From Chrysomallon squamiferum (taxonomy: Eukaryota; Animalia; Mollusca), in assembly GCA_012295275.1 (NCBI GenBank), contig CM022665.1, forward strand, positions 44,454,001-44,518,000: DNA of 64,000 nucleotides. The letters are read 5' to 3'. Made by a program: the position numbers and the translations under genes. Under the pieces are notes generated by a model that was not told where the DNA came from, ran no database searches, and worked only from the letters and a program-made list of their open reading frames with translations. This document shows positions 35,003 to 64,000 of the stretch, one piece after another. The first letter of the stretch is position 1, and each line of letters begins with the position of its first letter.

Positions 35003-38000
35003 GTAAGATTTTTAAAATGTTATAAATATTTGTGTTCTTTAATCTCTCTGGCTTTCTTACACTACTTCATTCATTTACTCCAACATATAATTGATAGAAA
35101 CAAAGTCAAATAAATGTATCTTATCATTAGAATTTTCTAAAGGAAACTTAATTAGCATCTCAAATTATTTAAGGGATGTGGATAACCGTTTGTTAGTAAT
35201 TGTTTTATGATTTAATATTCTGAAAACTTATATTTGGCAGAAATGCTTGAAGATGAGCAGCTGTTATCAAAAACTCCTGCTTGCGATGTCAGAGAAAAAT
35301 GTTTGGAACCTTTACAGTTAGCTCTGGAATCCAGAGCTAAAAAGCTGTCAGTTCATGTCATTGCAGGTTTGCAGGTAACGAAAAAGAAACATTTTTGTTT
35401 CTTCTGTTAATTAGTTGTAATTAAATTAGGTAATAAAAAGTAGAAGCAGTAGTAACAAATAACTTTAAGATAAATATATTCTGAGCCATATATGTCAGTT
35501 CATGTCATTGCAGGTTTGCAGGTAACGAAAAAGAAACATTTTTGTTTCTTCTGTTAATTAGTTGTAATTAAATTAGGTAATAAAAAGTAGAAGCAGTAGT
35601 AACAAATAACTTTAAGATAAATATATTCTGAGCCATATATGTATATTCAGTAAATATTTCTTAAAAAAGAAGGAATCGAAATATTTACATAACACATTAA
35701 ATCAGATTTTTAAAAAATATTAAATATATTTATTGTCAGTATTTCTAGTAAAGCAATTATTAGTACTGCGTATGTGCCATAACAAACATTTTTACAAATA
35801 GCTCTTAAATAACTATAAATTATTAATTTTCTGTTATTCTTAGGAAATTCTCAAGGATGAAAGATTTCAGTCTAACATTGAGACTGACGATGAAGAAAAA
35901 TGGCTTCCAGTGCAAGTCTTGAATGCAGTCTACTTCACACCAAATCTACCTGAAGAATCTCAGGTAGAAATAATGAAGGTGTGTACTGTGAATAATTCTT
36001 CTTGAGGCATCAGTTAATTCACTGGAACTGTGTAAAACTATCTTCAGTTAAATTATGAAAATGTTTGTGTTATTGATTCAGAAATACAAAATGCTATTAA
36101 GCATATCTTGAATTAAATTATTTACATTACTTTAATTGGTCTAATTAAAATAAATGTTCCGTTCGTTAATTTAATGTTTTATTTTTTGTAAAAAAAACAC
36201 GACACCTCCAAAAACTCCCCTTCACCCTTTCACACATTTATTATTTAATTTTTTTTTATGTATACAATTGTTAGTACTATTTTAACAAGTTTTCTTAATT
36301 CTGACAAATATTTTCTTGTAGTTGCTGCTGAGTATGACATTTTCTATCAGCTGGTGTATGAATGCCAAGGTGATAACAAAAGTGGCTCAGGTAAAACACA
36401 TGATGATTGTTACTTTAACACTAAAGGAAAGTGCAGAATCAAAAATTATACCACATGACTATGTGAGATTGTTAGCTTTTTAATAACGATTAATTAGTAC
36501 AATTTGGAGAAAAAAATTAATAATACAAAAAAAAAAATTAATATGTACTGATGGATAATATTGTGTACTTTTCTGACAGAAAAATCTTACTAGAAATTTT
36601 TCATTTAATTTTTTAATTTTTTAATTTTCTAAATGCTTTTGAGATTGGGCATTAGCATAATTTTGCCCTTATGCATTCTGAGATAAACTTGAAAAATGCA
36701 CTGATTAAGTTGCTAACAGGGTTGGGTTTTTTTTAATGATGATGAAAGCATGCCATAAAAATGTGTATATTAATATTTTTGGCTGTCAGATTAACAGAAG
36801 CAAAGCTCGAGGCTTCAGAAGACACTGACTGATGAAGCCAGCAAATGAACATAAAAGTCTTGTCATCGTCCTTTATCTAGTGTTAATTTTAATTTACACC
36901 ATTTATTGTTTTAATCGTTCTGTTTATGAACTGCACACAATAAGAATGCTTTCTGATCAGCTGTTGCTGATGTAGCACATTACTGCATCTGTCACCATTT
37001 TCTTAAGTGCTGAAGCCATGGCGACATTAAATAATGGCTATTGACTTACAAAAGACATTAACACCTAGCTTACACAAACGCATCTAAAATGTAACTTGAT
37101 GTAACAACTGTTTTCTGTATGGTTATTTACTGGTTGATTTCCCGAGAGATTTTTTAAAGCATTTTTTCATCAGTAGATAATGAATAAGTATTTTATAATA
37201 CAAAATTTGAAAATGTTAAAATTAAGCAATCAATTGTGTATATTGCATTCAGTTTTCATTCAAGAGATTTAAGACATTTTTAAGTTAATATATAGAGTGT
37301 TTATTTTATTTGTTGACTCAATAATTACTGATTAGCTTCAGATCAAGATTTTAAAATTATTATTTTTATTACTTTAAATTTATTTTGGTATGTTTACCAT
37401 GTTGTCCAGTGTTTGTGTTAATGATATATATTAATCTTCATGGTATTGACTAACTGTTAGACATCTGATTAGAAAACTATTAAATATGATTTTAAAAATA
37501 AATAAATTAAATAAATAAATAAATAAAATTAAATCAACAAGACCTAATTCACAAATACAAAATAAAAACAAACAGGCTTCTGGACCACATGCATCCATGG
37601 TGGGGTTTTTAAAAAATATAATCATCACAAACACAAAGTATCATGATTGCTATCTCTCATTAAATTCATTTTGCCTGTTTTTCTGTAAAGAAAACATGAA
37701 TTTAATTTGCAGCTATTTCTTGACTGTTATGGTGCCTCAAGTCGTACTGAGGCAGGAAAAATTGCAGCTGCCAGTTTCAGAGAAATGCTTGGCAGATTCT
37801 GTAGTCATAGAAACCAGGTAAAAGTAGCCAGGTGATGGTTTCACTGAACCGAAACAACCACAAAACCCAGGGTGTTGGTGATGGTGCCTTAACAAACACT
37901 AATAGTAATTAGAAATGAAATAATTTGTAGTTTGGACAAGCATATTTTAGGGCAGAATTTTAAGAAAGTTATTATTTGGTTTTATGAAAAACAAATATAT

Positions 38001-38015
38001 AATGCTTTATCAATA

Positions 38016-38051
<36 letters not shown>

Positions 38052-38290
38052 GTTTTGAGAAGAATTGGCTAAAATGATCAAAACTATATTCAAGAACATT
38101 TTATTACTTTTTTTGAAAGTTTTAAACAGATTTTAAAATTTGTTTTAAAATAAGAAAGACATTTTTTTTTTTTTTGCCCTGAAGTATGCCATTTACTTAT
38201 TTCCTTTTTTTTTTTGCAGCATGCAAGAAATTACCCATCTCCAAAATCTTTTAATTTAACAAGGTTCTGGTGCACAGGTTCCCCTCCCCT

Positions 38291-38328
<38 letters not shown>

Positions 38329-39960: not shown

Positions 39961-39993
<33 letters not shown>

Positions 39994-40226: not shown

Positions 40227-40293
<67 letters not shown>

Positions 40294-42126: not shown

Positions 42127-42164
<38 letters not shown>

Positions 42165-43027
42165 GGGGAATGTGTGTGTATATGCACATATATATTACAA
42201 AGTATATCTGAATGTATGTGTGAATGTATATATGTTTGTATATATGAATGTATATATCGTATTAATACTTAATGTTTGTTCATCATACTTTCTCATGAAT
42301 GTTAATTTGAAATTTCATTCTATGTAAGTATAAAGAACAGTCTGTTACTGCATTCTATAAGAAATGTTGGAACTCTGTTTTCACATTGGTTCATCTGATA
42401 TTGCAGTGCTCCTCAACTGAAGGTTGTTCAGCCTCTGCTTCTGGAAGGAATATATGCTGTTGTTTCTCATGTTCCACAAGAAATCAGACATCATGAAGGA
42501 TTCAAAGAGCTGATATGGTTAGTTACTCTGTACATTTTAGAAAAAAGATAAAATTAGCTTATAGTGCAGAATTTTCAAGACCCTCATATTATTAATATAT
42601 TCAGGGATGTGGCTATAAAAAAAATTCATCAATGAATGAACTGTTATGTGTTTTTCTTTGTTGAATTTTATGTTGCTTAGCAAGTTTATTCTTTCTTGTT
42701 TTTTATTTTTTTTTTTTCTGAGATGGCAAAACAGCACAACACACAATAACACAGTTTCCGTTGCTTGAACAGATACTTTATGAAGCTTATAAAATAAATC
42801 TTAAATAAAATAAACACTGAGAATCCAAAAAATATCACTATTCCGATCTTAGCATCCAATTCTGTACAGATTATCAAAACGTTCTTACCACTCTTACTAA
42901 AATTCAATTTGGTTTTAAGAAAAATTCCATGCTGTTTTTTTTGTTTTGTAGTTTGAATTATTTTTAATAACTGCAGGAAATCCACTCTTACTGTAATCCA
43001 ATTTGGTATTAAAACAAATTCCATGCT

Positions 43028-43061
<34 letters not shown>

Positions 43062-43365
43062 AAATTTGTTTTATTTTTAAAATATCTGTAGGAAATCTCT
43101 GTGTCCATCACTGATCTCATTGCTGGGCAGTCCAAAGATGGAGAAGAGTTCCTGGCATCAGAGATCTTCGTCAGATGAGGTGGGGAGGGGATCTGGGTGT
43201 TCCTCCTCCGCCCCCAGCATCCACACCTCAACAGCTAAAATTGTCTACAGGTTAGTCTACATGCTGTGTCATGTCTAGAGATGATTTTGTATACAGTGTG
43301 TTATGTGTGTTTCTTTCTATTTTGATATTGCATCCATTGTAATTTAGGATTGGGAACAGTCTAGA

Positions 43366-43401
<36 letters not shown>

Positions 43402-43404
43402 CAT

Positions 43405-43440: not shown

Positions 43441-44887
43441 ACACACACACACACATGCCCAGTTCCTGAGATATGAGGGTTCTAAGGTTGGTGGTCACAC
43501 CCATTTTTGGCAAAAATCTCAAAATTCACACACACACATATAACCTGCTTATATATACATATATCGGGTTTAAATTTCTTTTTTTATCTTTTTTAAATTT
43601 AAAATTTAATTTTTTTAATTTTATCTTTTTCTTTTTTCTGTTTCTAGTATTGCATCTGAGCTGGTGAGACTATTATATATATATTATATATACAATTTTT
43701 TTAAATTAAAAAAATGTTTTTTTTTTTTTTTTTTTCCTTCATTTTCTTTCTAGCATTGCATCTGAGCTGGTGAGACTTGTGGGAAGTCTTGGTTCACTGC
43801 GTCCTGTGATTGAATCTCTCTTCCATCGAATGTTACTTTATCCTCCACCCCAGCACAGAGTCGACGCCCTAAAGATTATCCGCGAGGTTGGAAGACATTT
43901 GTAATATCAGATATATATAGCATATTTGTGTTGTATGTCTTGTTAAATAAGATAGAGGCAAAAACCAAAAGAAAACCCAAAATAGTATCCAGAGAAAAAT
44001 AAAAGTATGCTGATTACCTTTAATAAATATACAAAAATTAATAATTAATGATAAGGTGATTTTATTTTACGGTTGGGTGCATTTAATATAAATTGCTAAA
44101 ATGTTGTCAGCTGACACATCCAAGAGATTTTTATCATTTTTTTTATTTAATAATATTATAAGTATTTAATTAATATGCAGTTAGTTGTATTAATATTTTT
44201 GTTTATAAATTCAGTAATTTTTGTACCTGGTGATTCTGAATATGGAACAGGTTTATTTAATAACATTTTTTTTTTTTTTTTTTTTTTTTTAAACTTGTGT
44301 GGATGATCTGTGCTATTTTTTACAGTTTAAGTTTTTTTCTGTTGTTTAGTTGCTTGGATCACCAGAAAGAGTTCTCAGCTTGTCAGGACCTTTTCTTCCT
44401 GAAGATGAACACAAAACAAAGAAGGTCTCTTTGACAGACATTTCACTATTAAAACTGTGAGTAATGTTTTCTTTTAAAGACAGTTTAATATGTATGTCAG
44501 TAATTCATGATAAGAAATTTGACAGACATTTCACTGTTAAAACTGTATGCAACGTTTTCTTTTAAAGACAGTTTAATATACAGGTCTGTAATTTATGATA
44601 AGAGATTTGACAGACATTTCACTGTTAATGTTTTCTTTTAAAGACAGTTTAATATGTAAGTCGGTAATTCATGACAAGAGATCAGTTAATTTTAAACTGA
44701 GTTTCGGGTTTGCATTTTGTAGCATTTCAGTTAAAAAATGGTAAAGGTGAAAACTGATTATTTTTTTTATTTTTTACCCATGACAAAATAAGTAAAATTT
44801 AAAAAATATTTTAATTTAAAATATTTTATAAATGGTTCTGTAAATATATGAAGATTAGTAATATTAAAAACAGTAATAATAATGATG

Positions 44888-44918
<31 letters not shown>

Positions 44919-45114
44919 CTACTAATAATTATAATAATAATAACATTAATAATAACAATAATAAGATCAACAATAATAATAATAACAGCAATCATAATGA
45001 TAACAATAACAATAATTATAAGATATTTTTCTTTAACCATGTTAATAAACACACAAAATAAACTAGTTAATAACAACTAATTTAGGATTTTTGTACAATA
45101 ATAATAATAATAGC

Positions 45115-45163
<49 letters not shown>

Positions 45164-45797: not shown

Positions 45798-46837
45798 TCT
45801 TTTTTTCCCCTATATATTTATGTATTTGATTATTATTATTATTATTATTATTTTTACTATATATGTTTATTATATATACATAATAGATATGTCTGTATAT
45901 TTAAAAAAAAAAAATAATAATATTAATAATCAAATACATAAATATATGGCGGAAAACTGTATTTATATATATATTTAACTTAAATGTCACTGCTTTCACA
46001 TCTAGAAAACGAATCCAAAAATGCCGACGAAAACAACACTCACGAAGACGTCTCGAAAGACACCAGCTTCGAAGACGGAGGCTCCTCCTCGCTGACAAAC
46101 GATGCCGAAAAACGAGTCGAAGACATAATGGAACTACACGTCATCAAGCAAGACAGCATGGAGGTTGACCCAGAACCTGAATATGACGAGCAGGAAGAAA
46201 CCACCATCAACAGCAGTCGCGCCACTCGGATCACAAAAATCTGCCTGGCAGATGTAGGAAGCCAGTCGAGCAGCGAGTACGGCGATGTCATCAACGTTCA
46301 GGAGACAATACAGTCGCAGCTGGCCGAGCAGCAGACGGAGGAGCTCCTGAGGAGAAGGAGCCTGCTGAGGGACAAGTTCGAGGCCATCGAGAGGGAGAAT
46401 GCTCGTAGTTTTGTGGAGGAGCTGCAGAAGATTTTGCCGGACCTGCTGAGGTCGTTTAGTGTACGAGATGTAAATGATACCCTGGAACAGTTCGCCTCCA
46501 ACTTCTGTTCAGGTTTGTTTAATGTCTGGTTTGCCAGAGTTGTAGTCTGTGTTGTAATGATAATATCTTCTGCACTGGAGATTGTAATCGATACTGGATT
46601 TATGATGAAAATAGTTATGGGGAGGTTTAAGTAGTTGCATAGCAATCAGTGTTTTTAGTTGCTGTGGGTGGTGAGTGATGATTTGCAAATGTTCTTTGAA
46701 ATTAACACAAATATCTCAAAAAATACATTTCTCTTTTAGAAACTAATTTATTTAGAAATAATGATAGGAGTTATTATTTTTGTTATTATATTATTATTAC
46801 TATTATTATTATTATTATCATCATCATCATCATCATC

Positions 46838-46881
<44 letters not shown>

Positions 46882-49800
46882 TATTATTTTTATTATTATT
46901 TTTATCATTTTTATTATTATTATTTATATCCTTATTATTATCATCATTTTTATTATTATTATTATTATTATTACTATTATTATTATTTTATTATTATTAT
47001 TATTCAAATATACTACAGTTTTTATAATTTGCTGTATCACATAACTTGCAGTGCACTCTTATCTTTCAAACCATAATAATAATAATAATTTATTTATATA
47101 TTGTATTTTAATTTTTAGCTTTAGTTGAGAAGTGTGACATCAGTAATGGCAATGATTCTGACCTGCAGGCTGCGGCTGCTGTTGTTCTCAACGCTGATGG
47201 TGTTTACATGGCTTCCATATCTGCATTGCTGCTGGCTCTCAAACTGGCTAAAAATGGATATTATGTGACAAAAGATGAGTCGAAACTTCCATACAATGAG
47301 GTAGACTATGTTTTTACCTTGATGCAGATGATATTTTTCATTTTTACGTAAATATTTTAAACATAAAATCTATTCAATTTGTTTTTGGTCTGAAGAAAAT
47401 TCTTTGAACTTGTTAAAGTCGCCCAAGAACTTCAGTATTTAAATAGATATCTAATAAAAAAAAAATAGCAAATATTAAAATATTAAACTTTATTTTGTGA
47501 AAAAATCCCTATTATGGAACCGTTGGTTTGCTACAAATATATGTTAACTCAGAAAAAAATGAGTAAAAGCTTCTGTTTAATGAGGTGATTTTTTAAAAAA
47601 TAATCAAGGAATTTCTAATCTTTAATATCAATATTTTTAACAAGATATATTTTAAAAAATTTTGTGTCGTTTATTTTTTTTTTTTCTGTGAATAAAATTC
47701 TTAGAACTCATTAAAATCACCCCAAGGACTGATTTTTTTTGGTGAAATTATTGTTAAATAAACAAATGGATGCAAGCCAGAGAAATATTTATCTTTGTCC
47801 TATCAAAACTTCACTATTAAAAAGTCATGTTGCATTGGCTTTGAGGTGTGATTTTGAAAATTCAAAAAAAAATTCTTAGTTTTTTGTTTTAAAAATATTA
47901 TATATAATTATCATCTTGTTTTCAGAAAGGTTTTATGGATGAAATACTGAGCAGTGGTTTGTTGCTTTTCCTCTCACCTGCTTGGCTCAGTGAAGTCTAT
48001 GAACAGATTGTCTCCTGCAATATCCTGGAGGCAGCTGGATTCGATCCTGTTGTCTACAGTCCATTAGTGAACATGCTGAAAGGTAAATTTAAGCTTAATG
48101 TTGGTGTTAGTGGAATTAATTTCATGATGTTTGTTGATCGTTCTTGACATAATTATCTTTCCTGAAAGCTAAATTTAAGCTTAATGTTGGTGTTAGTGAA
48201 ATTAATTTCATAATGTTTGTTTAATCTTTCTTGACATAATTATCTTTAAAGGTGTCCCCTTTGCTGATAATAAATAAATAGCCTAAATATATTTGGCATA
48301 TTTTTATATATTTGTTTTCGATAGAGACCTAACTAAGTTAAATTTAAAATTCAGCAGTATAACATTTTTCTGTTATTTTTATGACATGTACAGATGTGTT
48401 AAGAAATCAACTGTTTTTAATCATTATAATGACTGTTTTTCCAATATGTGCTCAGAAATGGTGCAGGCATACAAATAAGAAAGTTAAAACTGAAAGCAAA
48501 CAAAATGTGTATAATCATAAAATACAACATTGATATAAAATTTGTTCTTTATTTTTATAACATGTACTGATATATAGGGAAATTAACTGACTGATAGATA
48601 ATAACTGTTTTTATTAAATGCACTCACAAAATGACAGAAGCATACAAATAATAAAATACAGCAGTTTATATATATATATATATATTTTTTTTATGACTTA
48701 TAAAGAAGTTAATGACCTTGTAACTAATGCCCATTTTTACTAAATGGACTCAAAAATGAAAATGAGACAAGCATACAAATGAGAGACTAAATTGAAAGTA
48801 AACAAAATGCACATAATAATAAAATACAGCAGTAATACGACATTTTTCTTCCTTTTTATGACATACTGAGTTACACATAAAGCAGCTGAAGAATCAATAA
48901 TGTATATTTTTCCTAAATACACTATAAAAAATTATGCTGGTATATAAATAAAAGAGTAAAGCGAAAATAATCAAAATATGTACAATAATAATAAAAAACA
49001 ACAGTAATATAACTATTTTTCTTTCTTTTTATGACATGTACAGATATATTAAGAAATTGATTTACTAATAGATAATTTCCTGTTTTTCCACTATTCATTA
49101 ATAAATGATACTCAAAAACAAGAAATAATAAATCAGAATTATACTAAATAAATATAGACTGCTTATAAGCTGTGTGTATAGTGATAAATATTAATAAAAC
49201 AATAAAATAACAACAGTAATATAACGTTTTTCTTTCTTTTTATGACACATACAGATATTTTAAGAAATTAATTTTTATATACATAATTTCAAGTTTTTCC
49301 ACTATGCATTAATAAATGATACTCAAAAACAAGAGAGAATAAATCAGAATTATACAAACTAGACTGCTTATAAACTGTGTGCATAGTGATAAATATTAAT
49401 AAAATAGTAAAATAACAACAATAATATAACATTTTTCTTTCTTTTTATGACACGTACAGATATTTTAAGAAATGAATTTTTATATACATAATTTCAAGAT
49501 TTTCCAGTATGTACTAATAAATGATACTCAAAAACAAGAGAGAATAAATTGGAATTGTACAAAATGAATATGGATGGCTCATGAACTGTGTGTATAGTAT
49601 TACATATTTTACATTGTTTTTTCTTACAGACATTGATGGACTTGGAAGTCATGAGATTGGAGCTCAGTTGATGAGTGACAGTGTTGATGTTGACAACATT
49701 GTAAATCCACAGTCTGATGGGCCTGCTGCTGAAGCAGGTGAGACTTGAACATAAACTCACTAATCATGTTAAAAAATTACACTGACAGTAGTTATCTTTC

Positions 49801-52800
49801 AGTACTATCAGTAGTTGTCTTTTATATAATTAAATAGATGACGATTTTGTATTTTTTTCCCCTTTTTGTACTGGTTTTTTTGGTTAATTTATTTATATTT
49901 AAATTGGCTCCCACCATCATCAAAGATATTTTTTTTTTACTGTTTTATCCACACCTGTATATAATTGTTTATGAGTAATATGTGTGATCCTGAATACATA
50001 TTTATGTTTTAGATATTATTTTGAATAATATGAATCTGCTTTTTAGATATTATTAAATATATTAACTGAGATGGGATGAAGAAATTGATTGAAATTTCTG
50101 TAAATTTTAACTAAATGTACACAAAATGAATACATTTTGTACATACTTTTCTAGGCTTTTTTTAATTTTAATTTTTTTTTTTTTAACTGAATGACAACTG
50201 GCAGATATGATTACTGGTAGATAGGTATTTTACATTCATAATCTCTCAGTCTTTGATAATTAAGGTATAGAATGTGGTAATTAATGATACAAGAACTTTT
50301 GCATTTCAGGCAAGAAATTATCTAGACATTTATTATCTACTTGCTGGGATGGGATTCTTGACGTGCTGTCTGTTCTTCTCAATGGTAAAAGTTCGTGTGG
50401 AATTAATGTCAGCCTGGGTTTGATGCTAGGCACAGAAGGAGCTAAAGAAGAAAGTATAAAAGCTAGAGATGCAATTTGTCTGAGTTTGACAGGATTGCAG
50501 AAGGCTGCCAATCTCTGCTGCATTCTAGGTTTGGTTTAGACCTGTTGATTTTTTGTTTTTAGTCAGTCATAGGACTCAAAATAAATCTGAAAATTTTTTT
50601 TCCCTTGTAAACTGTTAAAAATGAATTTTTGTTGATACGGTGTGTTTAGCTGAGAAACTCTATTTCTATTAATTGTTAAATATATTAAATATAAAAATAT
50701 TAAATATATAAATAATAATATTAAATAAATAAAAAAATAAATAATGTTTAAAAAATAATAATAAATAAATAATAATTGAAATCATTGAAAATGAATATCT
50801 TGATCTTGTCAGTTAAATAACATTAGAAAATAAAAAAATATAATAATAAAAATATAATATTAGAAAAAATAAACAAAAAATAATTTTAAAAAATAATAAA
50901 AATAAACAAACCAAAAATAATGTTTAAAAAAAACAACAAACATTTAATTCTTTGACAACAAATACTTTAATCTTTTTTCATCTACAACAATTAACATATT
51001 ACAATATAACTTTTTGTTTGAAAAAAAAAAAAAAGAAGAAGATAAAAAAAAATTAATTTTAAAAATATTTGTAACAGAGATTTACTAATATTTAATTTGA
51101 AATACATAAATTTTGTTGGCAGGTTTGCAGGAGAGATGTGGCAGTGCCTTCAACCAGCTAGCCAACACTTCGTGCGTGAAGGAAGATGTGCGAAGTCCGT
51201 GGCCAGGCGAGGCTAAACTTCACGGCAAAACCTCGGTGCTCCCCAACAAACCAAAGCTGGTTCGTCTCCACGCCGTCCATGTTCTCAGCATGGATGTCGT
51301 CATGACAACGGGGATGGAGATGGGGAGCCATTCTGCTGACTGCTGGAAGCATGTGTTTAGGTTGGTGTTATTGTACAGCAGTTGTTTTTTGATTGTAGTG
51401 ATTTTAATATTTTCTGTCTTTGTTGGTTTAATCTATTGTTCAATATATTAAATATGCTGACTGCTGGAAACATGTGTTTAGGTTGGTGATATTGTACAGC
51501 AGTTGTATTTTTTGATTGTAGTGATTTTAAAATGCGGTGTTTTCTGTTTTTGTTTGGTTTAATCTAAAAAGTGATGAAGTAGGTTTTAGATTCATTGTTT
51601 ATGTCAATGTATTTAATAGTTTTCAGCCATATTGTTTTAATTTTTTAATCTTCAGTTAAATACAACAAAATGCTGAAGTCTGTTTTTGATTTGTTTTAGA
51701 TTTCAGAACACTGAATAGTTTTCAGCCATATTTTTTTTTTAGTTTGAGATCATTTGTTTGATATACAGAAAATATTCATTGAAGGAAGGTACTAAGATAA
51801 TGGTTAATTAAAGTTCTTTTTAATTTTTCTCTATTTTCATTAAAATTTAAACAAGAGACAAATTTTTTATTTAAAATATATTTTTTTTAAACTATATTTT
51901 ATGATTTATTATAATTACAGGATTTTGGAATTAAGAACAAGAAGTCATTATTATTTATTACAATACATATCATTGGATCCACACTTTTATTATATGTTTT
52001 AATACTGAATTGTGTTGAGGTGTGGTTAAATAAGTATTTTCATTCATGTGTTGCAGGTGTTGTGCACACATATCAGAGTTGGAACACACGTATTTCAGTG
52101 GAGGAAACAACCAGTCGAATCTGCCCAAAGTTCAACAGGAGCAGAAATCTGACGCAAACGCAGATGAATTGGAGTAAGTTTTACATACAGTTGTTTTGAT
52201 AAAATAGTCTGAAAGAGTCGAAATTTATTCATTTTATTTATCACCTGAAATTTCTTTTTAATTATATTTTATTATAGTTATGATAAAACAGAATATAGAA
52301 TTTTATTTCATTTTATTTATTTTTTAATTTTTAAAAATTTTTTTTAGGTTTGATAAATGAAATTATTAATTTGATTTAATTATGAACTGTGTGTTTAATC
52401 ATAATACACAATTTCTACAAAGGTAGAAGTTTACATTAGATTTAAAAAACATTCATTATTGGTCCAGTAGAAATTAGCCTTGAAATTTTTAAAATACACA
52501 CTCTAATTTCATCATTATATTTGACAGACTGCATACTGTTTTGCCTTCAGGGATGAATGAATGAGGTTTAAAGTTTTAAGAATTCAGAATTACTGAAAAA
52601 TTTATAATGTTATATTTAATTTCTGTATTATAATATTAATTTTTTGTTTTCACAGTGGTAATGACCTGTATTCAGCTTCTGTTTCTGTTATACCTGTTGC
52701 CCCTCGAATTAACGTGGCAGAGCTCATTCGTCAGACTAGTATAGAGTCTGGATGGGAGGGCTCACTTTTAGGAGGAGGGGTGCTCAATTCGTCGCAGGCT

Positions 52801-53893
52801 TCAAAGGCTCTCTGTGGCTTGTCACAAGAAGTTGATCGGTAAGAATTTACTGTGACTGACTTTGTTTTGTTATTCGGTTTGTTTATTCTTAAATAAAATT
52901 CTGCAACCATTTGATTGTTACAATTTTTGTTAAAATGTATTTTTATGCTTTGTCTCTAGTTGAAAAATATGTTACCAGTCCTATATTTAAGCAATGAATA
53001 TTTGCTTCTTTTGTTCCAAGTACTTCAAAAAGTAGTTGTAAATAAGGGTGGTAAAGGATATGGTAATTAAATATTACAATAATTCTTTTTCATAAAACAA
53101 GACTTATCTTAGTTTAAATTCAGTTTGACATCATAAATGCATGTATTTATTAGAATTTTATTTTCTTGATTAAAGTAATATATAAAGAGATATCTTTCAA
53201 GGGTTTCTGAAAAGGGAGTGACATCATTATACTGAATACAACTTCCATTGTTGAAATGAACTTCATTATAAAGATAAAAATATTGGTATGCAAACAATTG
53301 GGCTGGAGGATATGTATGGAGCAAGTCTTATGAATCTGCATAAATATAAACATCATCATATTTTTATGAATTTATTTATGGATCTGCATAATCATGATGA
53401 TGATCATATTTTTTATGAATTTATGGATCTGCATAAATATTGCCATCATCATATTTTTTTACAAATACATAGATCTGCATAAATACGGCCACCACCATCA
53501 TCATATTTTTTTTTTATGAATTTTACAAATTCAGTTATTTTCTTTCAGTCTGTTTGAAGATGCTGCTGAAAAGCTAAATCTTCAGGGACTACTGACATTC
53601 CTCGCGGAGCTTGGTGAATCGAGTCGCGTACAGCTGAGGAAGCTGAAGAACACGGAGTCTTCTGATGGAGTCGGGAGTTGGTCTCGCTTACCAACGAATG
53701 CCCTGCACCTGTACAGACTGCAGGAGGTTCTGATGAAGATAGCACACAGCTCCAGGCCTCTGTTACATCTGATTAGAGTGTGGAGTGTCGTTTCGCCCTA
53801 CCTGGTAGAGGTGAGTGTGAGATACCAGTGTGATATCGAATGTGTATGATTGTATGTGCAGTCTAATTGATATAATAGGTGTGATTGACTGTG

Positions 53894-53966
<73 letters not shown>

Positions 53967-55102
53967 AAATCAACTTTTTAATACCAACTTTATAATTATC
54001 ATTATTCTTATTAGAAAAAAGAAATCTAATTTTGAATACTAGTTTTGTTATATCACTAGTTTTAGAAAAAGAAAATTATAATTAATTATTCTTTTTAGAA
54101 AAAAAGAAAATCTAATTTTTGATACTAGTTTTGTCACATCATTATTCTTTTTAGAAAAAAGAATTGTATTTTTAATACTAACTTTATTATTATCATTATT
54201 CTTTTTAGAAAAATAAAATAAAATATAATATTTAATACTAACTTTATAATACCATTATTCTTTTTAGAAAAATAAAATAAAATTTTTATTACTAATATTA
54301 TTATATCATTATTCTTTTCAGAAAAAGAAAATCTAATATTTGATACTAACTTTATTATTAATTATTCTTAGGAGAAAAAAAAAAAAAAATCTAATTTTTA
54401 ATGCTAACATTATTATTATCATCATGAATTCAGGCAACAAACAGCAGAGACCGGGCAGTGACAAAGATGTCGGTCACCTGTGTTCACGACTTCATTGTGG
54501 CCATGTTGAGTAACCACGAAGAGCTGCCTCACTTCCACATCAACGAGTTTCTCTGTAAGACGTTTGAAGACATGTTGTGTATGGAGATTTGTGACGGTGA
54601 CGTCCAGGATCAGGTCAGTTCATTATATTATAGCATGTTTGTGACCAGACACATTTTTTTATGTTTTTGTTATTATTATTATTTTATTTATTTATTTATT
54701 TTTGTTGTCGTTTTACTTTTTTTTTTTTTTTTTAATTAATTATTTGGTTTAAAATTTCATAAAATTTTTTACAATTTAAAATTTATTTTTTTTTCATTGT
54801 TTTGAAAAAAAATTTTATTTTATTCAATTTTATAACTGTTAGACAGGACATACTAAGCTTTTGGGGAATTATCCTGTTTCGTTTTTTTGCTTACACTAAC
54901 TATTGAATAATGCATTTATTTTTTTTTTTTTTTTTATGTTGAATTTAATTACAGAAGAGCCAGAAAAATAACTATTCAGAAAAACCATCTAAAATATCAC
55001 TTTTTAAAAATGTTTTTTCAATTTATTTATTTATTTATTTATTTATTTATTTTATTTATTCATTTTATTTTGTTTTGTTTTATTTATTTATTTTTTTCTT
55101 TA

Positions 55103-55133
<31 letters not shown>

Positions 55134-55192
55134 TATTTATTTATTTTATTTATTTATTCATTATTTAATTTTGTTTTGTTTTTTATTATTTT

Positions 55193-55235
<43 letters not shown>

Positions 55236-57119
55236 TTTTAATTTATTTATTCATTATTTTATTTATTTATTTGTTTGTTTTATTTATTTATTTATTTTTA
55301 TTTTTTATTTATTTTTATTTATTTTATTTTTATTTATTTATTTTATTTTTTTATTTTAATTTATTTATTTATTTATTTATTATTTATTTATTTATTTATT
55401 TATTTGTTTATTTATTTATTTGTTTGATTTATGTATTCAGATTGTGTGTTCTATCTGTGAGCTGGTTGAAGCGTGCACAGCTCAGATTCACTCTGGGTGG
55501 CAGCTGTTTGGCGCCCTCAGGTCTGTCAAAATAGAATACACCACAAGTGAGGAGGTCAATGAAGCCAGGCAACACCACGTTGCTGCTGTCCTCGATGTCT
55601 TCGAGGTCTTCCTTGACACCAACAACATCCTCGTCTTCGCCAACGCCACAGTGGATTGTATTCTTTGTCTGCTTAGATATGTCCAGGGACCAGGTATGTT
55701 TTCTTCATGTTTGTTAGAATTATTATTTTACTATCTTTGTTTATTTTTGTTTGTTTGTTTGAATTTTAAAATTGTTTTTGATATGTGTAACATGGTGAAC
55801 ACTGTTTGAAATTTAGATCTAATGAGTTAATTATTTGTCTTAGAAATTTATTTATTTATTTTGTTATCACATACTTAGAGCATTAATGAATTTATTTGTT
55901 AATCTTAAAGATTTATTTGTTGATACATCCACATATGTATCTGTTTACTTACTTACATGTACAGCTAAATACTGTCTGCCTACTTATCTATCTGTCACAT
56001 GTTACTTATACACTTCTTCATTTGTGAATTATCTTTCATCTTTTAAAAAGATCTGTTATACATTTCTAAATGATTTAACAGAACATTCATCATTCAGTCA
56101 TTCATTCATTTACAAATTTGTTCATTCATATTTTAATTTTATTTTATAAGTAATTATTTATTTATTTTAAAAGTGAACATCTAGTTACAGAAGAAGAAAT
56201 ATTTCAGACTATGTTTATGTTGACTGTTATCTGTAGATATATTTATCTTATAGCTGACCCAAATGAAAAACCACCTAGAGAAATGTCAAATGGTAGGCTG
56301 TTGCAATGTTTAAATTTCGGTGAAGGGAAGGTGAAAGTATCTTTCTTTCATGAACTGTTTCAGCTTGATTCATTTTAAACTCTTTAAATACCAAAAATGA
56401 AACTTGTTGTTTTTTTTGTTGTGTTTTGCATAATGCTTTATGCACTGTGAATAATTATGTATTTCTTCTTTTTCATAAGTTTTGTTTTTACTTTTGTTGA
56501 AAAAAAAATCAGGTTGTCTTGGTTCATTGCTGTGTTTTTTCTTTTATTATTTATTTTTCTTTTCTTTTCTTTTTTTTAAATTTTTTATTAATTTTTGTTT
56601 GTTTGTTTGATAGTTTAATTATATTTGCACTGCAGACAAGAAAACACTTATTATTTTTATTTTTTATTTTTATTTTTATTTTTTTTCAATTTTTTTTTTT
56701 TTAGTCTACAGCTGTAAGTAAATGAAATAAATATCTGAATATGCATGCATAAAAATAGTTAAAGGTGCAAGAGGTTATGTCAGTATGACATTACTTAAGG
56801 AATGAGGGAAAATAAATAAATACAGTATATTAAACTCAGAAGAAAAGATGCTTATATTGAAATGAATGTAGCCAATATTCCATTATAAGTTTATCAAAGA
56901 TCTTGCATACCTACTTATAAAAATTATATAATAATCTATATCTATATTTATATCTATATTTATATAGATAGATATAGATATACTTTTATATGTTTGAGAT
57001 GTTAAATGTTAATAGGTCTCAGACTAAAGACTCTAATTTCAGTGAACTCGGTGAACTCATTTATTTATTCAGTTGTTGATATTATACAGATAGTGTACAC
57101 ACACACACACACACACACA

Positions 57120-57150
<31 letters not shown>

Positions 57151-60100
57151 CCTAGTCTAGCAATTTTCTGGAAACTCTGTTTCTGTATTCAGATGCTAAT
57201 ATTCCATATATAATATATTTAGTACAGGACAATTAAATTATGTTTTAAATTACAGGTCTGTTTGAGGTGTTAAAGAGGGGTTTCTTAGTCAAGTGTAAAA
57301 TTCAGTTATTGTATTCATATGTTGATATTCCATACCACAACATATCTGATACTTGACCATTAGATAGATTTTTTATTTACAGGTTCATTTAAGGTGTTAA
57401 GAGAGTTTCATAGATTAGTGTAAAACTCAGTTATTGTATTCAGACATAGATATTACATACCACAATATATTTGATACCTGTCAATTGATAAGATGTTTTA
57501 TTTATGGGTATATTTGAGGTGTTAAGAGAGTTTCATAGATTAGTGTAAAACTCAGATGTTGATATTACATACCACAATATATCTGATACCTGACAGCTGA
57601 TAAGATGTTTTAATTCACAGGTATATTTGAGGAGCTAAGTGACGAGGAGTCTGACTCGGGCAGTGATGTCTGCACTCAGGTTGCCAGTGGGGAGAGTCTG
57701 TGTATTCCAGCACTGAAATACCTGCAGCGATGCTGTGATATCCTTGCCTCCATGTGGAAGATGCCAGCCAGCCCCATATTTAAAGGAGCTCATAGGTAGG
57801 AGGTGTTTTCTTGGATTTGATATTTAAAGGAGCTCTTAGATAGGAAGTGTTTCTTGGATTTGATATCTTAAGGAGCTCATAGGTAAAAAGTGTTTCTTGG
57901 ATTTGATATTTAAAGGAGCTCATAGCTAAAAATTGTTTCTTGGATTTGATATTTAAATGAGCTCTTAGATAGGAAATGTTTCTTGGATTTGATATTTAAA
58001 TGAGCTCTTAGATAGGAAATGTTTCTTGGATTTGATATTTAAATGAGCTTAAAGTAGGAAATGTTTCTTGGATTTGATATTTAAATGAGCTCTTAGATAG
58101 GAAATGTTTCTTGGATTTGATACTTAAAGGAGCTTATAGGTGGGAAATGTTTCTTGGATTTGATATTTAAAAGATCTCATAGTAAGAAGTGTTTCTTGGA
58201 ATTGATACATAAAAGAGTTCATAGATAGGAAGTGTCTTCTTGGATTTGATAATGCATTATATAACTCATGAAGCTAACATTACTGTAATCTTATCTTAAA
58301 ACCAAATAAATATCAGACATTAACACCAATTTTTATTTTTTATTTTATTATTATTATTTTTTTTGCTTTCAGAATTCAGCTAGGATCCACAGTTCGTGTT
58401 GTTGATAATAAAATTCCCAACATGAATTTTGAAGCTTTTTCCAAATTCTTCGAAAGTGATGGACCGGTTGCCAAAGAAGATGACACCGCGGGAGAAAAAG
58501 TGTCCATAGTGGACGATGGAATAAGAACTGAGGTTGTGTTTGAAAAGTGTCCCAGACGTCCTGACAGCGAACAGTCCAGTGCCAAACAGCGAGATTCGGA
58601 CCAGGGTTTCGACGCACAGAGTGTCACGTCTGCCGATTCTGGAATGCTGGACATGATGTCACCAGAGCGTAGTTCTGCAGACCCTCTGGAACCATCCAGC
58701 ACTGCTGTGCCTCTCACACTGGACAAGCTGGACAACCATTCTGGAATCTTGCACGTCTGGTTCTTGTTGTTGGACGGACTGGCGACGTCGGTGTCCAGCT
58801 GTCCGAAGACGTTCCAGCCGAAGACGATAGAGATGCTGTTTGATCTGCTGAGATCTGCTGCTGGCGTGCCAGGTTTGTGGCTGGTTTATGTTTATATCTC
58901 AGAGCAGATTGTGGTTTATGTTTATGTCTCAGAGCAGTTTGTTACTGGTTTATGTTTGTATCTGAGAGCAGTTTGTGGCTGGTTTATGTTTATCTCTCAG
59001 AGCAGTTTGTGGTTTATGTTTATGTCTCAGAGCAGTTTGTGGCTGGTTTATGTTTGTGTCTCAGAGCAGTTTGTGGTTTATGTTTATGTCTCAGAGCAGT
59101 TTGTGGTTTATGTTTATGTCTCAGAGCAGTTTGTGGCTGGTTTATGTTTGTGTCTCAGAGCAGTTTGTGGCTGGTTTATGTTTGTGTCTCAGAGCAGTTT
59201 GTGGTTTATGTTTATGTCTCAGAGCAGTTTGTGGTTTATGTTTGTGTCTCAGAGCAGTTTGTGGTTTATGTTTGTGTCTCAGAGCAGTTTGTGGTTTATG
59301 TTTATGTCTCAGAGCAGTTTGTTACTGGTTTATGTTTGTATCTGAGAGCAGTTTGTGGCTGGTTTATGTTTATCTCTCAGAGCAGTTTGTGGTTTATGTT
59401 TATGTCTCAGAGCAGTTTGTGGCTGGTTTATGTTTGTGTCTCAGAGCAGTTTGTGGTTTATGTTTTGTCTCAGAGCAGTTTGTGGTTTATGTTTATGTCT
59501 CAGAGCAGTTTTTTGGTTTATGTTTGTGTTCAGAGCAGTTTGTGGCTGGTTTAAAGCAGTTTGTGGTTTATGTTTATGTCTAGCAATTTCAGAGCAGTTT
59601 GTGGTTTATTTTGTGTCTCAGATTTATGTTTATGTCTCAGAGCAGTTTGTGGTTTATGTTTATGTCTCAGAGCAGTTTGTGGCTGGTTTATGTTTATGTC
59701 TCAGAGCAGTGTGTGGCTGGTTTATGTTTGTGTCTCAGAGCAGTGTGTGGCTGGTTTATGTTTGTGTCTCAGAGCAGTTTGTGGTTTATGTTTATGTCTC
59801 AGAGCAGTTTGTGGTTTATGTTTATGTCTCAGAGCAGTTTGTGGCTGGTTTATGTTTATGTCTCAGAGCAGTTTGTGGCTGGTTTATGTTTATGTCTCAG
59901 AGCAGTTTGTGACTGGTTTATGTTTATAAACTTTTTTTTCTTAATTTATTATTTAGACGTTCATTTTTTGTTGGATTGAGCTATTTTCGTATTTCGAAAT
60001 TGTTATTAAGTTATTATTTATTGTTTAATTTTTGTAAATGAGATCTTTTATAAATGCTTATTTTTTTAATGTTATTATTTTTAATTTTTGTCCTTTCAAA

Positions 60101-61863
60101 ACAGTCTGTTGTTGTAACACAATTTAACCTGTGTTTATTTTTATTAAAATTGTTTCTAAATTTAAATTATTATTATTTTTTTTAATTATTGAAATTGAAA
60201 TTTATTATTATTATTATTATTTTTAATTTGTGAGCTTTCAAAACAGTCTATTGTTTTAACATAATTTAACCTGTGTTTATTTTTATTAAAACTGTTTCTA
60301 AATTTAAAATATTATTTATTGTTTTAATTTTTAAAAAACTGAATTTTTTAATTATTTTAACCTTTTTTTTTTTTTAAAAAAACAACTAAAATTTCTTTTA
60401 TTATTATTATTTTTTTTAATCATTGTGCTTTCAAAACAGTCTATTGTTTTAACATAATTTAACCTGTGTTTATTTTTATCTGTTATTATGTAAAAAAAAA
60501 AAAAAATTACTATTTCCAGGGCCTAGATTTGCAGTGTACTGTGTCAACCATCTGCTGTTGCCGATGCTGCAGTCGTGGTTACGTCAGAGGCTCTCGCATA
60601 CATCGATACTGGGATTCGGGAGCTGTCAACTTCAAGCAGTGCTGTGGACACATGTCAGATCTGGTCGTAGACTTCATTACACAGTTTAAAGGTATTTTGA
60701 ATATCAGTAGTTTTCACTGAAAAATAAAGATTTTAAAAAAATGGTATAAATGGTCACTGCTCTGTTCTCCCACCCAAAAAATTATGGAATGGAATTATTT
60801 ATCTTCTAGTGTGTTTTTAATTTTCATAAAATATTGTTATTGGGGTTAGACTTCATTACACAGTTTAAAGGTATTTTGGATATCAGTAGTTTTCACTGAA
60901 ATAGAAAAAAATAAAGATTTAAAAAATGGTATAAATGGTCACTGTTCCCACCCAAAAAATTTATCTTTGTGTTTTTAGCTTTCATAAAATATTGTTATTG
61001 GTTAAACATATTATTATTATTATTTTTTTTTTTTAAATATTACTGTTTATTTGTTTGTGTAGAATAGGAAATAGCTCACAAGGAAATAAAAACTAAAATG
61101 ATTAATATAAAAAAAAAATTGTTATTTAAATTTAAAATTAAAACAAATTTGTTATTATTTATAGCATCTATACTGAATTACAGCCATCAAGATATAAATG
61201 TTTTTGCTTACCAAAGGATAATGAAATATATTTATGTCTAATTTATAAATTGTTATATACCAGATCATATTAATTTTCTACATTTAGGTTTAGTACATGG
61301 AAATAGATTTTCTTTTCTTAAAGAAATCTCCTGAATATTTTCTTTTCCTTATCCCTTTTCCGTTTTCAAATTTTTTAGTGTGTGTGTGTGTGTGTGTGTT
61401 TTTTATTTTATTATTTTTTTACTTAATGGATTTTTTATTTTTTAATGAATAATATATTTTTTTTTGTTTCATTCTTATTCTAGGTGCTGCAGAAGAGCAG
61501 GTCTACTTGGAGCTGATGTTAAAACAGTCGCTGGACATGATGATAGAGTGCATAGCTCAGCCAGTAGAACATATCTCTAGACTTGGCTGTTCTTGTATCA
61601 GGTTTATATCTAAACAAATATCAGTTATCATTATTTTATTTTATATTTGTTATTATTAAATATTATTACTGAAGATCAAACTGATCTGCCTTTAAGAGTG
61701 GTTTATTTTGTATCTGTTAAATACAGTTTTTTCTTTAATTTTCATTGGTTATTTTATGTTGTTAGTATTATTCGGATATTCCGACCAAATCTGGTTTCAA
61801 ACTTGACAAGTAAATGGTTTGGTACCTGTATTATTATTTACTATTTATTATTGTAAAATATTT

Positions 61864-61896
<33 letters not shown>

Positions 61897-62932: not shown

Positions 62933-62987
<55 letters not shown>

Positions 62988-63927
62988 GTTCCACAGATTC
63001 TGTTTTAGACAACAAACCCCCCCCCACCAAAACAAACTAAAACATATCTTTGATATAAAACAGAACTTCAAATGATCTTGGAAAGTATTTAAAATACCTG
63101 TTTCGAAAACTTTTTTTTTTTTTTACAAACAACCTGTCTTTGTCTAATTGTTTCTGCTTATTACAGGTGTTTTTATTGGAAAACCAGGTGTCCAGTATGC
63201 CTCAGGTACAGTTTGACTTGGAGGAAGGACAGTCTTATGTGTTTCTGTTATACCCTCAAAACCACAAAGACAGCCTAAACCCAGACCACATAGTAACAAG
63301 GTAGAGTGGAGTTATTCTAACGTGGTTCTTACAAAAAGAGCCTAAATTCAGATAATTAAATTATAGATGTAACAACTATAATAATTAAAAAAAAAAAAAA
63401 TATTAAAAATTAAAAATATATTTTCAGTTTAAATTCAGTGATTATGGAAACTTTCCAGTGACAAATATTTTGAATGTATTTGTCCAGGGTTTTCGTTTTA
63501 GCAGATAATGTGAATTTAAATTGATTATAGTAATGGTTTAGTTGTATTTTTCAATATGCAAATATTTTGGTGTGTTGATGAAAGAGGATTTACTTTTATA
63601 TCTTTTTTCTTTCTTTCTTTCAAAAACATATATAAGTATTTATCTGAAACAGTCATAAACCTGTGTAACAAATAATTACTTTTTCATAGGATTCTGTTTA
63701 AAAATATAATGATAGGCATCTTATATAGGGAAAGAGCATTTTCTTTTTACTTGTTATATTTTATTATTATTATTATTTATTATTTATTTTTTATTTTTTT
63801 TAACAAACATGAAGCTACTAGTATTTTAAAAATAAATACTTCTTTGCAAGATTCTGTTTAAGAACATAGTGATAGGCATGTTGTCCCATCAGTTTCTTAC
63901 ATTTACTTGTATATACTTTTTTATATA

Positions 63928-63958
<31 letters not shown>

Positions 63959-64000
63959 GTGAAGCTACTAGCATTTAAAAAATAAGTACTTCTTTGCAGG
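34918..64000 (+). CDS. ARFGEF3: Brefeldin A-inhibited guanine nucleotide-exchange protein 3 (BIG3/KIAA1244) orthologue, 5' part: 29 exons, ~1695 aa, continues beyond the window
   Basis: Spliced translation follows recalled human BIG3 throughout: MEDVLKKL..., [89 protein letters not shown]...NFK. GT-AG introns, phases consistent except for one extra base in exon 26. Confidence 0.95.
35241..35374 (+). CDS. ARFGEF3 exon 2
   Basis: [44 protein letters not shown]. Confidence 0.93.
35346..35642. repeat. Perfect 147-bp tandem duplication spanning the exon 2 donor
   Basis: 35346-35492 is identical to 35493-35639. Confidence 0.95.
35844..35978 (+). CDS. ARFGEF3 exon 3
   Basis: [45 protein letters not shown]. 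Confidence 0.93.
36322..36390 (+). CDS. ARFGEF3 exon 4
   Basis: [23 protein letters not shown]. Confidence 0.9.
37713..37817 (+). CDS. Putative alternative ARFGEF3 exon 5a
   Basis: TTTGCAG|105 nt open, phase 0-0|GTAAAA. Encodes [35 protein letters not shown], similar in pattern to exon 5b. Confidence 0.6.
38359..38475 (+). CDS. ARFGEF3 exon 5 (5b)
   Basis: [39 protein letters not shown], donor GTAAGA (alternative GT 3 nt upstream). Confidence 0.92.
41532..41574 (+). CDS. ARFGEF3 exon 6
   Basis: [14 protein letters not shown]. Needed to bridge phase 0 to phase 1. Confidence 0.85.
41782..41869 (+). CDS. ARFGEF3 exon 7
   Basis: [28 protein letters not shown]. Confidence 0.9.
42407..42517 (+). 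CDS. ARFGEF3 exon 8
   Basis: [37 protein letters not shown]. Confidence 0.9.
43092..43250 (+). CDS. ARFGEF3 exon 9
   Basis: [15 protein letters not shown]...[22 protein letters not shown]. Confidence 0.93.
43754..43886 (+). CDS. ARFGEF3 exon 10
   Basis: [44 protein letters not shown]. Confidence 0.95.
44350..44456 (+). CDS. ARFGEF3 exon 11
   Basis: [35 protein letters not shown]. Confidence 0.92.
44430..44682. repeat. ~88-bp tandem triplication spanning the exon 11 donor
   Basis: TTTGACAGACATTTCACT starts at 44430, 44518 and 44606. Confidence 0.9.
45180..45352 (+). CDS. ARFGEF3 exon 12
   Basis: [38 protein letters not shown]... Confidence 0.9.
46006..46512 (+). CDS. ARFGEF3 exon 13 (acidic linker and start of the Sec7-like region)
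   Basis: ...[41 protein letters not shown]. Confidence 0.93.
46786..47003. repeat. (TTA/TCA)n microsatellite
   Basis: Direct. Confidence 0.9.
47119..47300 (+). CDS. ARFGEF3 exon 14
   Basis: ...[29 protein letters not shown]... Confidence 0.92.
47926..48082 (+). CDS. ARFGEF3 exon 15
   Basis: [52 protein letters not shown]. Confidence 0.93.
48340..49600. repeat. Degenerate intronic tandem repeat, ~200-210-bp units
   Basis: AACAGTAATATAAC.TTTTTCTTTCTTTTTATGACA..TACAGATAT recurs (clearest at ~49000, 49210, 49420; older copies at ~48350, 48520, 48820). Confidence 0.85.
49630..49737 (+). CDS. ARFGEF3 exon 16
   Basis: [36 protein letters not shown]. Confidence 0.92.
50310..50528 (+). CDS. ARFGEF3 exon 17
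   Basis: [31 protein letters not shown]...[20 protein letters not shown]. Confidence 0.93.
51123..51360 (+). CDS. ARFGEF3 exon 18
   Basis: [19 protein letters not shown]...[33 protein letters not shown]. Confidence 0.95.
52057..52173 (+). CDS. ARFGEF3 exon 19
   Basis: [38 protein letters not shown]. Confidence 0.92.
52656..52838 (+). CDS. ARFGEF3 exon 20
   Basis: ...[23 protein letters not shown]. Confidence 0.92.
53325..53522. repeat. ~45-50-bp degenerate tandem repeat upstream of exon 21
   Basis: GATCTGCATAAATA...CATCATATTTTT x4-5. Confidence 0.8.
53549..53810 (+). CDS. ARFGEF3 exon 21
   Basis: [21 protein letters not shown]...[36 protein letters not shown]. Confidence 0.95.
53970..54425. 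repeat. ~55-60-bp AT-rich minisatellite filling intron 21 up to the acceptor
   Basis: ATCATTATTCTTTTTAGAAAAAAGAAAATCTAATTTTTAATACTAACTTTATT, about 8 copies. Confidence 0.85.
54434..54613 (+). CDS. ARFGEF3 exon 22
   Basis: [60 protein letters not shown]. Confidence 0.95.
55020..55430. repeat. (TTTA)n tract abutting the exon 23 acceptor
   Basis: Direct. Confidence 0.9.
55441..55693 (+). CDS. ARFGEF3 exon 23
   Basis: [29 protein letters not shown]...[20 protein letters not shown]. Confidence 0.95.
57236..57640. repeat. ~113-127-bp tandem repeat x3-4 spanning the exon 24 acceptor
   Basis: Acceptor-like junctions at 57255, 57382, 57507, with the true one at 57620. Confidence 0.85.
57621..57795 (+). 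CDS. ARFGEF3 exon 24
   Basis: ...[34 protein letters not shown]. Confidence 0.93.
57776..58251. repeat. ~43-bp minisatellite x11 whose first unit spans the exon 24 donor
   Basis: ATATTTAAAGGAGCTCATAG|GTAGGAGGTGTTTTCTTGGATTTG and 10 variants. Confidence 0.95.
58373..58872 (+). CDS. ARFGEF3 exon 25
   Basis: ...[48 protein letters not shown]. Confidence 0.93.
58873..59926. repeat. 30/34-bp minisatellite, roughly 33 units, starting at the first intron base after exon 25
   Basis: Unit AGAGCAGTTTGTGG(CTGG)TTTATGTTTRTGTCTC. Confidence 0.97.
60093..60478. repeat. Three intronic copies of a ~50-bp core
   Basis: CTTTCAAAACAGTCT.TTGTT.TAACA.AATTTAACCTGTGTTTATTTTTAT at ~60093, 60235, 60428. Confidence 0.85.
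60520..60691 (+). CDS. ARFGEF3 exon 26 (contains an apparent +1 frameshift near 60585)
   Basis: [22 protein letters not shown] in one frame, [35 protein letters not shown] in the next. 172 nt between two phase-1 introns. Confidence 0.9.
60668..61001. repeat. ~179-bp tandem duplication spanning the exon 26 donor
   Basis: TAGACTTCATTACACAGTTTAAAG|GTATTTTG at 60668 and 60847. Confidence 0.92.
61484..61601 (+). CDS. ARFGEF3 exon 27
   Basis: [39 protein letters not shown]. Confidence 0.95.
62312..62540 (+). CDS. ARFGEF3 exon 28
   Basis: [16 protein letters not shown]...[18 protein letters not shown]...[10 protein letters not shown]. Confidence 0.95.
63167..63300 (+). CDS. ARFGEF3 exon 29
   Basis: [44 protein letters not shown]. 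Confidence 0.92.
63670..64000. repeat. ~150-160-bp tandem repeat carrying copies of the inferred exon 30 acceptor and exon start
   Basis: GATTCTGTTTAA.AA.ATA.TGATAGGCAT at 63690 and 63850. The upstream flank GAAGCTACTAG..ATTT..TACTTCTTTGCA repeats and ends TTTGCAG|G at 64000. Confidence 0.85.

Follow-up and report, generated by a model that had tools for sequence, protein, structure and literature searches.

The window analysed here, a stretch of 64,000 nucleotides (nt) from the mollusc Chrysomallon squamiferum (contig CM022665.1, positions 44,454,001 to 44,518,000), contains an ARFGEF3/BIG3 gene in which short tandem duplications have copied ten splice sites, with ends that crowd near the exon-intron borders. 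The gene lies on the + strand from 34918 to 64000 and runs past the window edge. Its model, supported by homologue matches and by the junctions of an RNA contig, comprises 30 coding exons (34918-63300) plus the acceptor of the next exon at 63998-63999. The introns are GT-AG throughout and a single open frame is maintained, except for a one-base frameshift in the exon 60520-60691. This exon is conserved, the homologue alignments switch frame near 60585, and the frameshift is probably a consensus error. The exon 55441-55693 matches the mollusc BIG3 proteins of Pecten (84%), Tegillarca (84%) and Patella (81%), and three predicted junctions, linking four exons, are joined at the expected sites by one RNA contig. 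Pfam searches with five single exons yielded nothing useful. A candidate micro-exon at 56254-56292 (39 nt, in-frame, bounded by AG and GT and flanked by two phase-1 introns) is missing from the homologous proteins that extend across the junction; the stretch is either a chance occurrence or a lineage-specific alternative exon, and its removal from the tests described below left the p values almost unchanged. In an initial annotation of this DNA, the later exons of the gene carry numbers that are one lower than in the present model.

The duplications of ARFGEF3

Self-comparison of the window, restricted to offsets of 20-500 base pairs (bp) and to complex sequence, revealed 19 complex local repeat clusters, against 0.2-0.3 matches per locally shuffled window (10 shuffles). 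Eighteen of them lie in ARFGEF3, and one was left out (54653-55361, A/T-rich, 65% identity). Of the 17 duplications counted, ten cross a splice site, one begins at the first base of an intron and six are intronic. Eight crossings were established by BLAST alone and two more by pairwise alignment together with homologue peptides. The ten crossing events are head-to-tail repeats whose unit spans an exon-intron border, the arrangement that defines the so-called mirages. The repeats that the initial annotation had described as straddling donors and acceptors are therefore confirmed, and the units, from 30 to about 200 bp long, mutually unrelated and of different ages, agree with the recurrent, independent events over time that it had proposed.

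Six donors are crossed, and all the duplications lie on the + strand. At donor 35374, self-comparison and alignment show a 147-bp duplication (35346-35642), identical at 147/147 positions, that includes 29 nt of the exon, keeps the spare GT and has a 3-nt microhomology at its junction. An 88-bp unit is present three times over donor 44456 (44430-44682, 27 nt of exon); in the third copy, at 44606, a 12-nt deletion takes out the donor, yet a GT persists at 44624, and the donor deletion reported near 44625 is correct with this qualification. The 86-bp duplication at donor 48082 (48076-48247, 7 nt of exon), seen by alignment and in contigs of DNA-type runs, has its spare GT changed to CT at 48169. 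The spare GT is kept in the 121-bp duplication at donor 51360 (51334-51566, 27 nt of exon) and in the 179-bp duplication at donor 60691 (60668-61001, 24 nt of exon), and in 4/10 spare units of an array in which a 43-bp unit, repeated 11 times, crosses donor 57795 (57776-58251, 20 nt of exon). On the acceptor side, a duplication of about 115 bp at 43092 (42888-43097, 6 nt of exon) keeps the spare CAG and one of about 108 bp at 43754 (43589-43777, 24 nt of exon) keeps the spare AG. A 125-bp unit in about four copies crosses acceptor 57621 (57172-57642, 12-22 nt of exon), with two spare AG kept and one changed to GG. The last crossing, at 64000, involves the acceptor at 63998-63999 and a unit of about 160 bp with two spare copies (63580-64000), whose spares read TAG and CAA and whose exon part, placed by a homologue peptide, is about 43-49 nt. 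The eleventh border event is a 30/34-bp minisatellite of about 33 copies (58873-59927) that starts at the first intron base, exactly as had been claimed, with GT after CA in most units. The individual losses listed in the initial annotation (GT to CT at 48169, AG to GG at 57506, CAG to CAA at 63849, six of ten GT in 57776-58251) are all present.

The intronic arrays include four that end shortly before an acceptor: 48345-49608 (units of 175-205 bp, 21 nt before acceptor 49630), 53328-53523 (45-48 bp, 25 nt before 53549), 53964-54425 (54 bp, 8 nt before 54434) and 60006-60479 (about 150 bp, 40 nt before 60520). Long (TAA)n, (TTA)n and (ATTT)n runs at 44859-45162, 46771-47110 and 55021-55437 likewise stop near acceptors; as simple repeats they were excluded from the duplication counts. 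The density of duplications is regional, with none in the first 21 kb of the window, two in the next 22 kb and 16 in the last 21 kb. The border copies make up about 12% of the ARFGEF3 intron sequence (2,867/23,891 bp), so that they are relevant to the growth of introns and a possible source of error in gene prediction.

Position of the duplications relative to splice sites

Crossing was compared with random placement by removing the spare copies and sliding each unit along the collapsed gene, placements being kept if they were intronic or crossed one site. Against the 10/17 crossings observed, 4.8 were expected (p 0.006). The expectation was 5.5 with low-complexity placements barred (p 0.018) and 5.4 when placements were weighted by detection (p 0.016); it was 4.7 once the doubtful micro-exon had been removed (p 0.005), and the addition of five hypothetical short intronic events gave p 0.013. 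The boundary overlap, a comparison that the initial annotation had proposed genome-wide, is thus above random in this gene, about 2-fold (p 0.005-0.02), a weak excess for a gene flagged for that very feature. Every one of the four youngest two-copy events crosses a splice site (p 0.016). Simulated duplications of 88-160 bp were recovered at rates of 0.72-0.92 when intronic and 0.91-1.0 when crossing, a gap too small for detection bias to explain the excess at borders.

The position of the ends is a stronger signal than crossing itself. Given crossing, the exon overlap is 30 nt or less in 9/10 events, with a range of 6-29 nt in those nine (p 0.00015); five of the six donor overlaps measure 20-29 nt, and the threshold-free mean quantile of exon overlap is 0.23 instead of 0.5 (p 0.001). 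No overlap exceeds 50 nt, where 2.5-2.8 were expected (p 0.04-0.06). Considering all 17 duplications, at least one end is no farther than 30 nt from a splice site in 13, against 2.8 expected (p about 1e-7), an excess that persists at cut-offs of 20-80 nt. Events that do not cross behave in the same manner, 5/7 ending no farther than 45 nt from a splice site (1.3 expected). Of the earlier proposal that duplications are seeded at boundaries, what is supported is that their ends lie near splice sites beyond chance and detection bias; crossing is only about 2-fold over random.

Orthologous ARFGEF3 loci were sought in metagenome contigs by protein match with a conserved exon, which gave 52 loci, falling into 31 clusters; exon borders were refined in 28 of the 52 loci and the repeats near them were aligned. 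Three non-adjacent pairs, restored in a second test, and three clusters outside annotated exons were left out. Among the 16 tandem events, nine end 45 nt or less from a splice site, where 4.2 were expected (p 0.005, with p 0.001-0.01 over the range of cut-offs, the distances having already been seen when the sweep was chosen). Restoring the three rows gave 9/19 (p 0.016; p 0.006-0.04 across cut-offs). The overlaps of the orthologous crossings (12, 17, 23, 41 and 51 nt) are also short (p 0.024; p 0.045 with the three rows restored). The fraction of splice sites crossed is 10/59 in the window gene versus about 5/178 in the orthologues (p 0.0005). The end bias is therefore not special to this genome, since the orthologues show it too, if weakly; its strength here is special. 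The genome-specific process claimed initially is not supported by this comparison, all the more since mirages are published for amphioxus and human genes. No new exon border relative to the orthologues was found where the two were compared.

Some orthologous repeats merit description. Two other animals carry different repeats, of 55 and 58 bp, over the acceptor of the same ARFGEF3 exon (L021:1-439 and L010:6112-6238), and the L021 repeat keeps AG in 8/8 units. At L050:61-1436, a 42-bp array takes up nearly all of an intron, leaving only 15 nt on the donor side and 35 nt on the acceptor side. At L019:1883-1961 and 2287-2362, a 79-nt piece internal to an exon has been copied 400 bp downstream into the intron, without the donor.

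The results are best accommodated, in our tentative opinion and a little short of an even chance, if the duplications are mirages produced by ordinary break repair and if chromatin or base composition keeps their ends close to the edges of exons. Several observations weigh against this reading. It is based on one gene chosen for the feature, and the distance cut-offs were set after the data were seen. Simulated 45-bp two-copy duplications were recovered in only 2/720 cases, so that short events are missed by the catalogue. The G+C content beyond the exon-side ends is 0.51 versus 0.45 for exon ends generally, a comparison of nine ends only that identifies no barrier. In amphioxus, the mirage of BflGb6 includes about 100 exonic nt by our own count (PMC3087553), and shallow overlap is accordingly not universal. 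The orthologous contigs are metagenome assemblies, several of which seem related to each other, and their crossings (5/16 tandem events versus 4.4 expected, p 0.46) show no enrichment. Moreover, if crossing copies lasted twice as long as others, the excess of crossings in the window gene would not be significant (p 0.13-0.22). These last two points would also be expected if placement were random in a duplication-rich region, with long exon copies purged, the real copy of each crossing duplication protected against deletion, and this gene flagged as an extreme draw. The regional density of duplications and the lack of overlaps above 50 nt are in line with such a scenario, which we nonetheless consider unlikely. 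Purging of long overlaps lowers the expected crossings to 1.8-2.2/17 versus ten observed, so that random placement is not rescued by it and would need a survival gain far above twofold. The youngest events, too recent for much loss, all cross a site, the intronic events too end near sites, and the end bias recurs in loci that were not picked for it.

The window also contains an ERM-family gene (about 21240-29736) upstream of ARFGEF3, named from its reading frame and the initial annotation. It has one complex duplication and one 24-bp array just before an acceptor; this minisatellite (28606-28711) stops a few bases ahead of acceptor 28716. No duplication crossing a splice site was found in this gene by self-comparison of the window. 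The contrast that had been drawn between both genes holds in this respect, but it is no control, since with two duplications the probability of no crossing is about 0.5. Over 21000-64000, which covers both genes, the sense strand is richer in G than in C and in T than in A, most strongly at 52-62 kb, and this skew may reflect germline transcription. The peak of the skew and the highest duplication density coincide in the same half of ARFGEF3.

Reality of the copies and fate of the spare sites

Nine sequencing runs from three studies cover the region; four were compared, as contigs, on 47100-50600 only, runs with a small share (X7-X9) being unused. Both copies of the 86-bp pair at 48076, with their own flanks and variants, are present in contigs of 3/3 DNA-type runs, and neither a joint skipping a copy nor a single-copy form was seen in these three runs. 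From the distances to its end, one contig seems to run across the junction, and no record bridging it by 31 letters a side was found among the records listed. These data support that this duplication is real and not an assembly artefact. The RNA contig uses the first donor, 48082, whose spare is without GT; it is the sole crossed donor covered by RNA. The intronic array 48345-49608 has one extra unit in two runs. In other runs, this array and the stretch at about 50020-50140 show high contig depth and many loose ends, which suggests that both have dispersed relatives elsewhere in the genome.

If the two-copy events were assembly errors, such as two alleles placed in tandem where they rejoin in an exon, one could understand that one pair is 100% identical, that the consensus seems imperfect, with a frameshift about 80 nt away from the 60668 pair, and that the overlaps of 20-29 nt are similar to the word lengths used in assembly. 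As a general explanation this is very improbable, given that 5/11 border events have three or more copies, that several pairs differ by 12-25%, that the window is free of N and that the contigs of three runs cover both 48076 copies with none skipping a copy; it may still apply to the pairs at 35346, 51334 and 60668.

The spare splice sites were analysed for decay and coding effect. Outside the two big arrays there are 13 spare copies. Nine are intact, among them those at 35522, 42977, 51482, 57383 and 60871; in three others a substitution has destroyed GT/AG, and in the remaining one a deletion has. Between copies, mismatches at G and C are about twice as frequent as at A and T, and when the faster change of G is counted the loss equals the background, 1.8-2.4 losses being expected by substitution and 2.3-2.8 including deletions (p 0.17-0.44); a simpler count gives p 0.14. 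The comparison with neighbouring bases suggested by the initial annotation thus reveals no faster loss of GT/AG (p 0.14-0.44, with the low power of 13 copies). In the 43-bp array, the six GT losses represent two alleles, three of the five G>A units being identical copies, and the donor G has two derived alleles versus 11 across all 13 G columns. The spare donors at 35522, 51482 and 60871 are identical to the real donor over nine bases, and three spare acceptors outscore the real ones in a matrix built from the window's own sites. With the loss at background and several spares as strong as real sites, the selection against decoy sites that had been proposed is not supported.

The reading frame is intact at all crossed splice sites. 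All 13 intact spare sites tested, if used as simple extensions, add a stop codon, so that their use would likely lead to nonsense-mediated decay and not to new exons. No spare site giving a new open exon or intron was found, and no spare-site use was seen in the RNA contig, contigs being blind to rare use. The idea that the copies are raw material for new exons and alternative splicing is accordingly not borne out. The same results bear on a process special to this genome that would seed duplications on splice sites, with selection purging spare GT/AG and copies feeding new exons, or on its splicing-linked variant, in which the spliceosome or an RNA-DNA hybrid would mark the DNA. Taken together, both forms are improbable. 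The higher fraction of sites crossed here than in the orthologues speaks for them, as does the length of five of the six donor overlaps, since the exon length covered by the spliceosome and the junction complex is near 20-29 nt. Nevertheless, the losses of GT/AG are at background whether deletion is included (4/13) or not (3/13), the donor G of the 43-bp array has so few derived alleles, the L021 repeat has lost no AG, the tested spare sites would add stops, and the neighbouring ERM gene is spliced too without having crossing duplications.

Proposed origin and relation to known systems

The preferred reading, ordinary break repair with constrained ends, can be put as a series of steps. First, a pair of staggered breaks, or a tract of 30-200 bp whose copying was aborted, would be filled in and joined through 0-3 nt of microhomology or a few added bases. 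At the junctions observed, the microhomology is 0-3 nt long or a short additional sequence is present, a pattern consistent with break repair by fill-in and end-joining. Second, the ends of the tracts cluster from about 45 nt on the intron side to about 45 nt on the exon side of the border, and the barrier responsible may be, as our best guess, a nucleosome positioned on the exon or the change in base composition where A/T-rich intron gives way to G/C-richer exon. Third, some pairs would expand to arrays by unequal exchange, as is shown for one array. Fourth, the site adjoining the intact exon is used at one site here and in published cases, and presumably elsewhere. Fifth, within the limits of 13 copies, spare sites decay at the background rate. 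A copy crossing one border leaves the exon whole and the spare site farther off, so that it has little cost; tolerance is predicted as long as the intact exon keeps its nearest splice site.

The divergence of the copies is relevant to another origin, recombination between divergent alleles, in which homologue-templated repair would pair in the conserved exon, fail in the indel-rich intron and have its aborted tract joined in tandem. Contigs of other samples carry many intronic substitutions and indels with respect to the window, the 51334 and 60668 pairs differ by about 3-4% plus indels, near the between-sample level, and amphioxus, where mirages were named, is very polymorphic, all of which would suit such recombination. 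It is nevertheless quite unlikely, because the 35346 pair is identical, as if derived from a sister chromatid, and the 20-29-nt overlap does not follow from the model alone.

Mirages have been described in the amphioxus genes for Adh3, troponin C, the globins BflGb6 and BflGb9, and PGBD5 (PMC3087553, PMC3902484). As here, they are tandem copies of exon-intron borders on the donor or the acceptor side, with units of 10-160 bp, copies 81-100% alike, AG/GT kept in some copies only and variation in length; splicing is normal and the mechanism is called unclear by the authors. The available parts of these accounts hold no test against random placement, and those of the amphioxus huntingtin paper (PMC2206037) make no mention of mirages. 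The present case differs in that it concerns a mollusc, with ten or eleven unrelated events in a single gene, and in the exon overlap, shallower in nine of ten events than that of BflGb6 (PMC3087553). In human genes, border-spanning minisatellites are known in F7 (the 37-bp variable number tandem repeat of intron 7), CBS, LAMIN B2, PDGF and 6-16 (PMC1557585). The first unit spans the donor, spare donors follow and the first donor is mainly used, which the 43-bp and 30/34-bp arrays match closely; the human cases differ in having one array per gene, on the donor side only, and partial use of the next spare donors is seen in CBS and 6-16 (PMC1557585).

Fill-in at DNA breaks by Pol alpha-primase, CST and end-joining yields small tandem duplications (PMC8355091), and is the likely source of the first copy. 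These products are also head-to-tail with little microhomology, a likeness seen here in the shape of the junctions; they were obtained in mammalian cells at engineered breaks, and exon borders are not mentioned in the available text (PMC8355091). Intron gain by tandem or internal gene duplication also involves duplicated splice signals inside a gene (PMC4974935, PMC3443670), whereas here no new intron or exon has arisen and the exon borders compared match those of the orthologues. Neither a genome-wide test of duplication ends at splice sites nor a mollusc mirage was found in the open-access literature searched.

Each repeat is therefore an ordinary mirage, and the set is real and unusually dense, with a measurable bias of its ends toward splice sites. 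It is possible, although rather doubtful, that a general mutational bias of animals starts or stops short duplication tracts within tens of bases of splice sites, through exon chromatin or the splicing machinery on nascent RNA. If so, mirages would be a visible trace of exon architecture shaping DNA repair, and this gene, with about one sixth of its splice sites copied, an extreme case. The intact spare sites constitute a natural test of nearest-site choice for acceptors as well as donors. What is added to the mirages already known is a count against a null, together with the observation that the ends cluster around splice sites and reach only slightly into exons; counting end positions would provide a cheap genome-wide test of the mechanism by which mirages arise.

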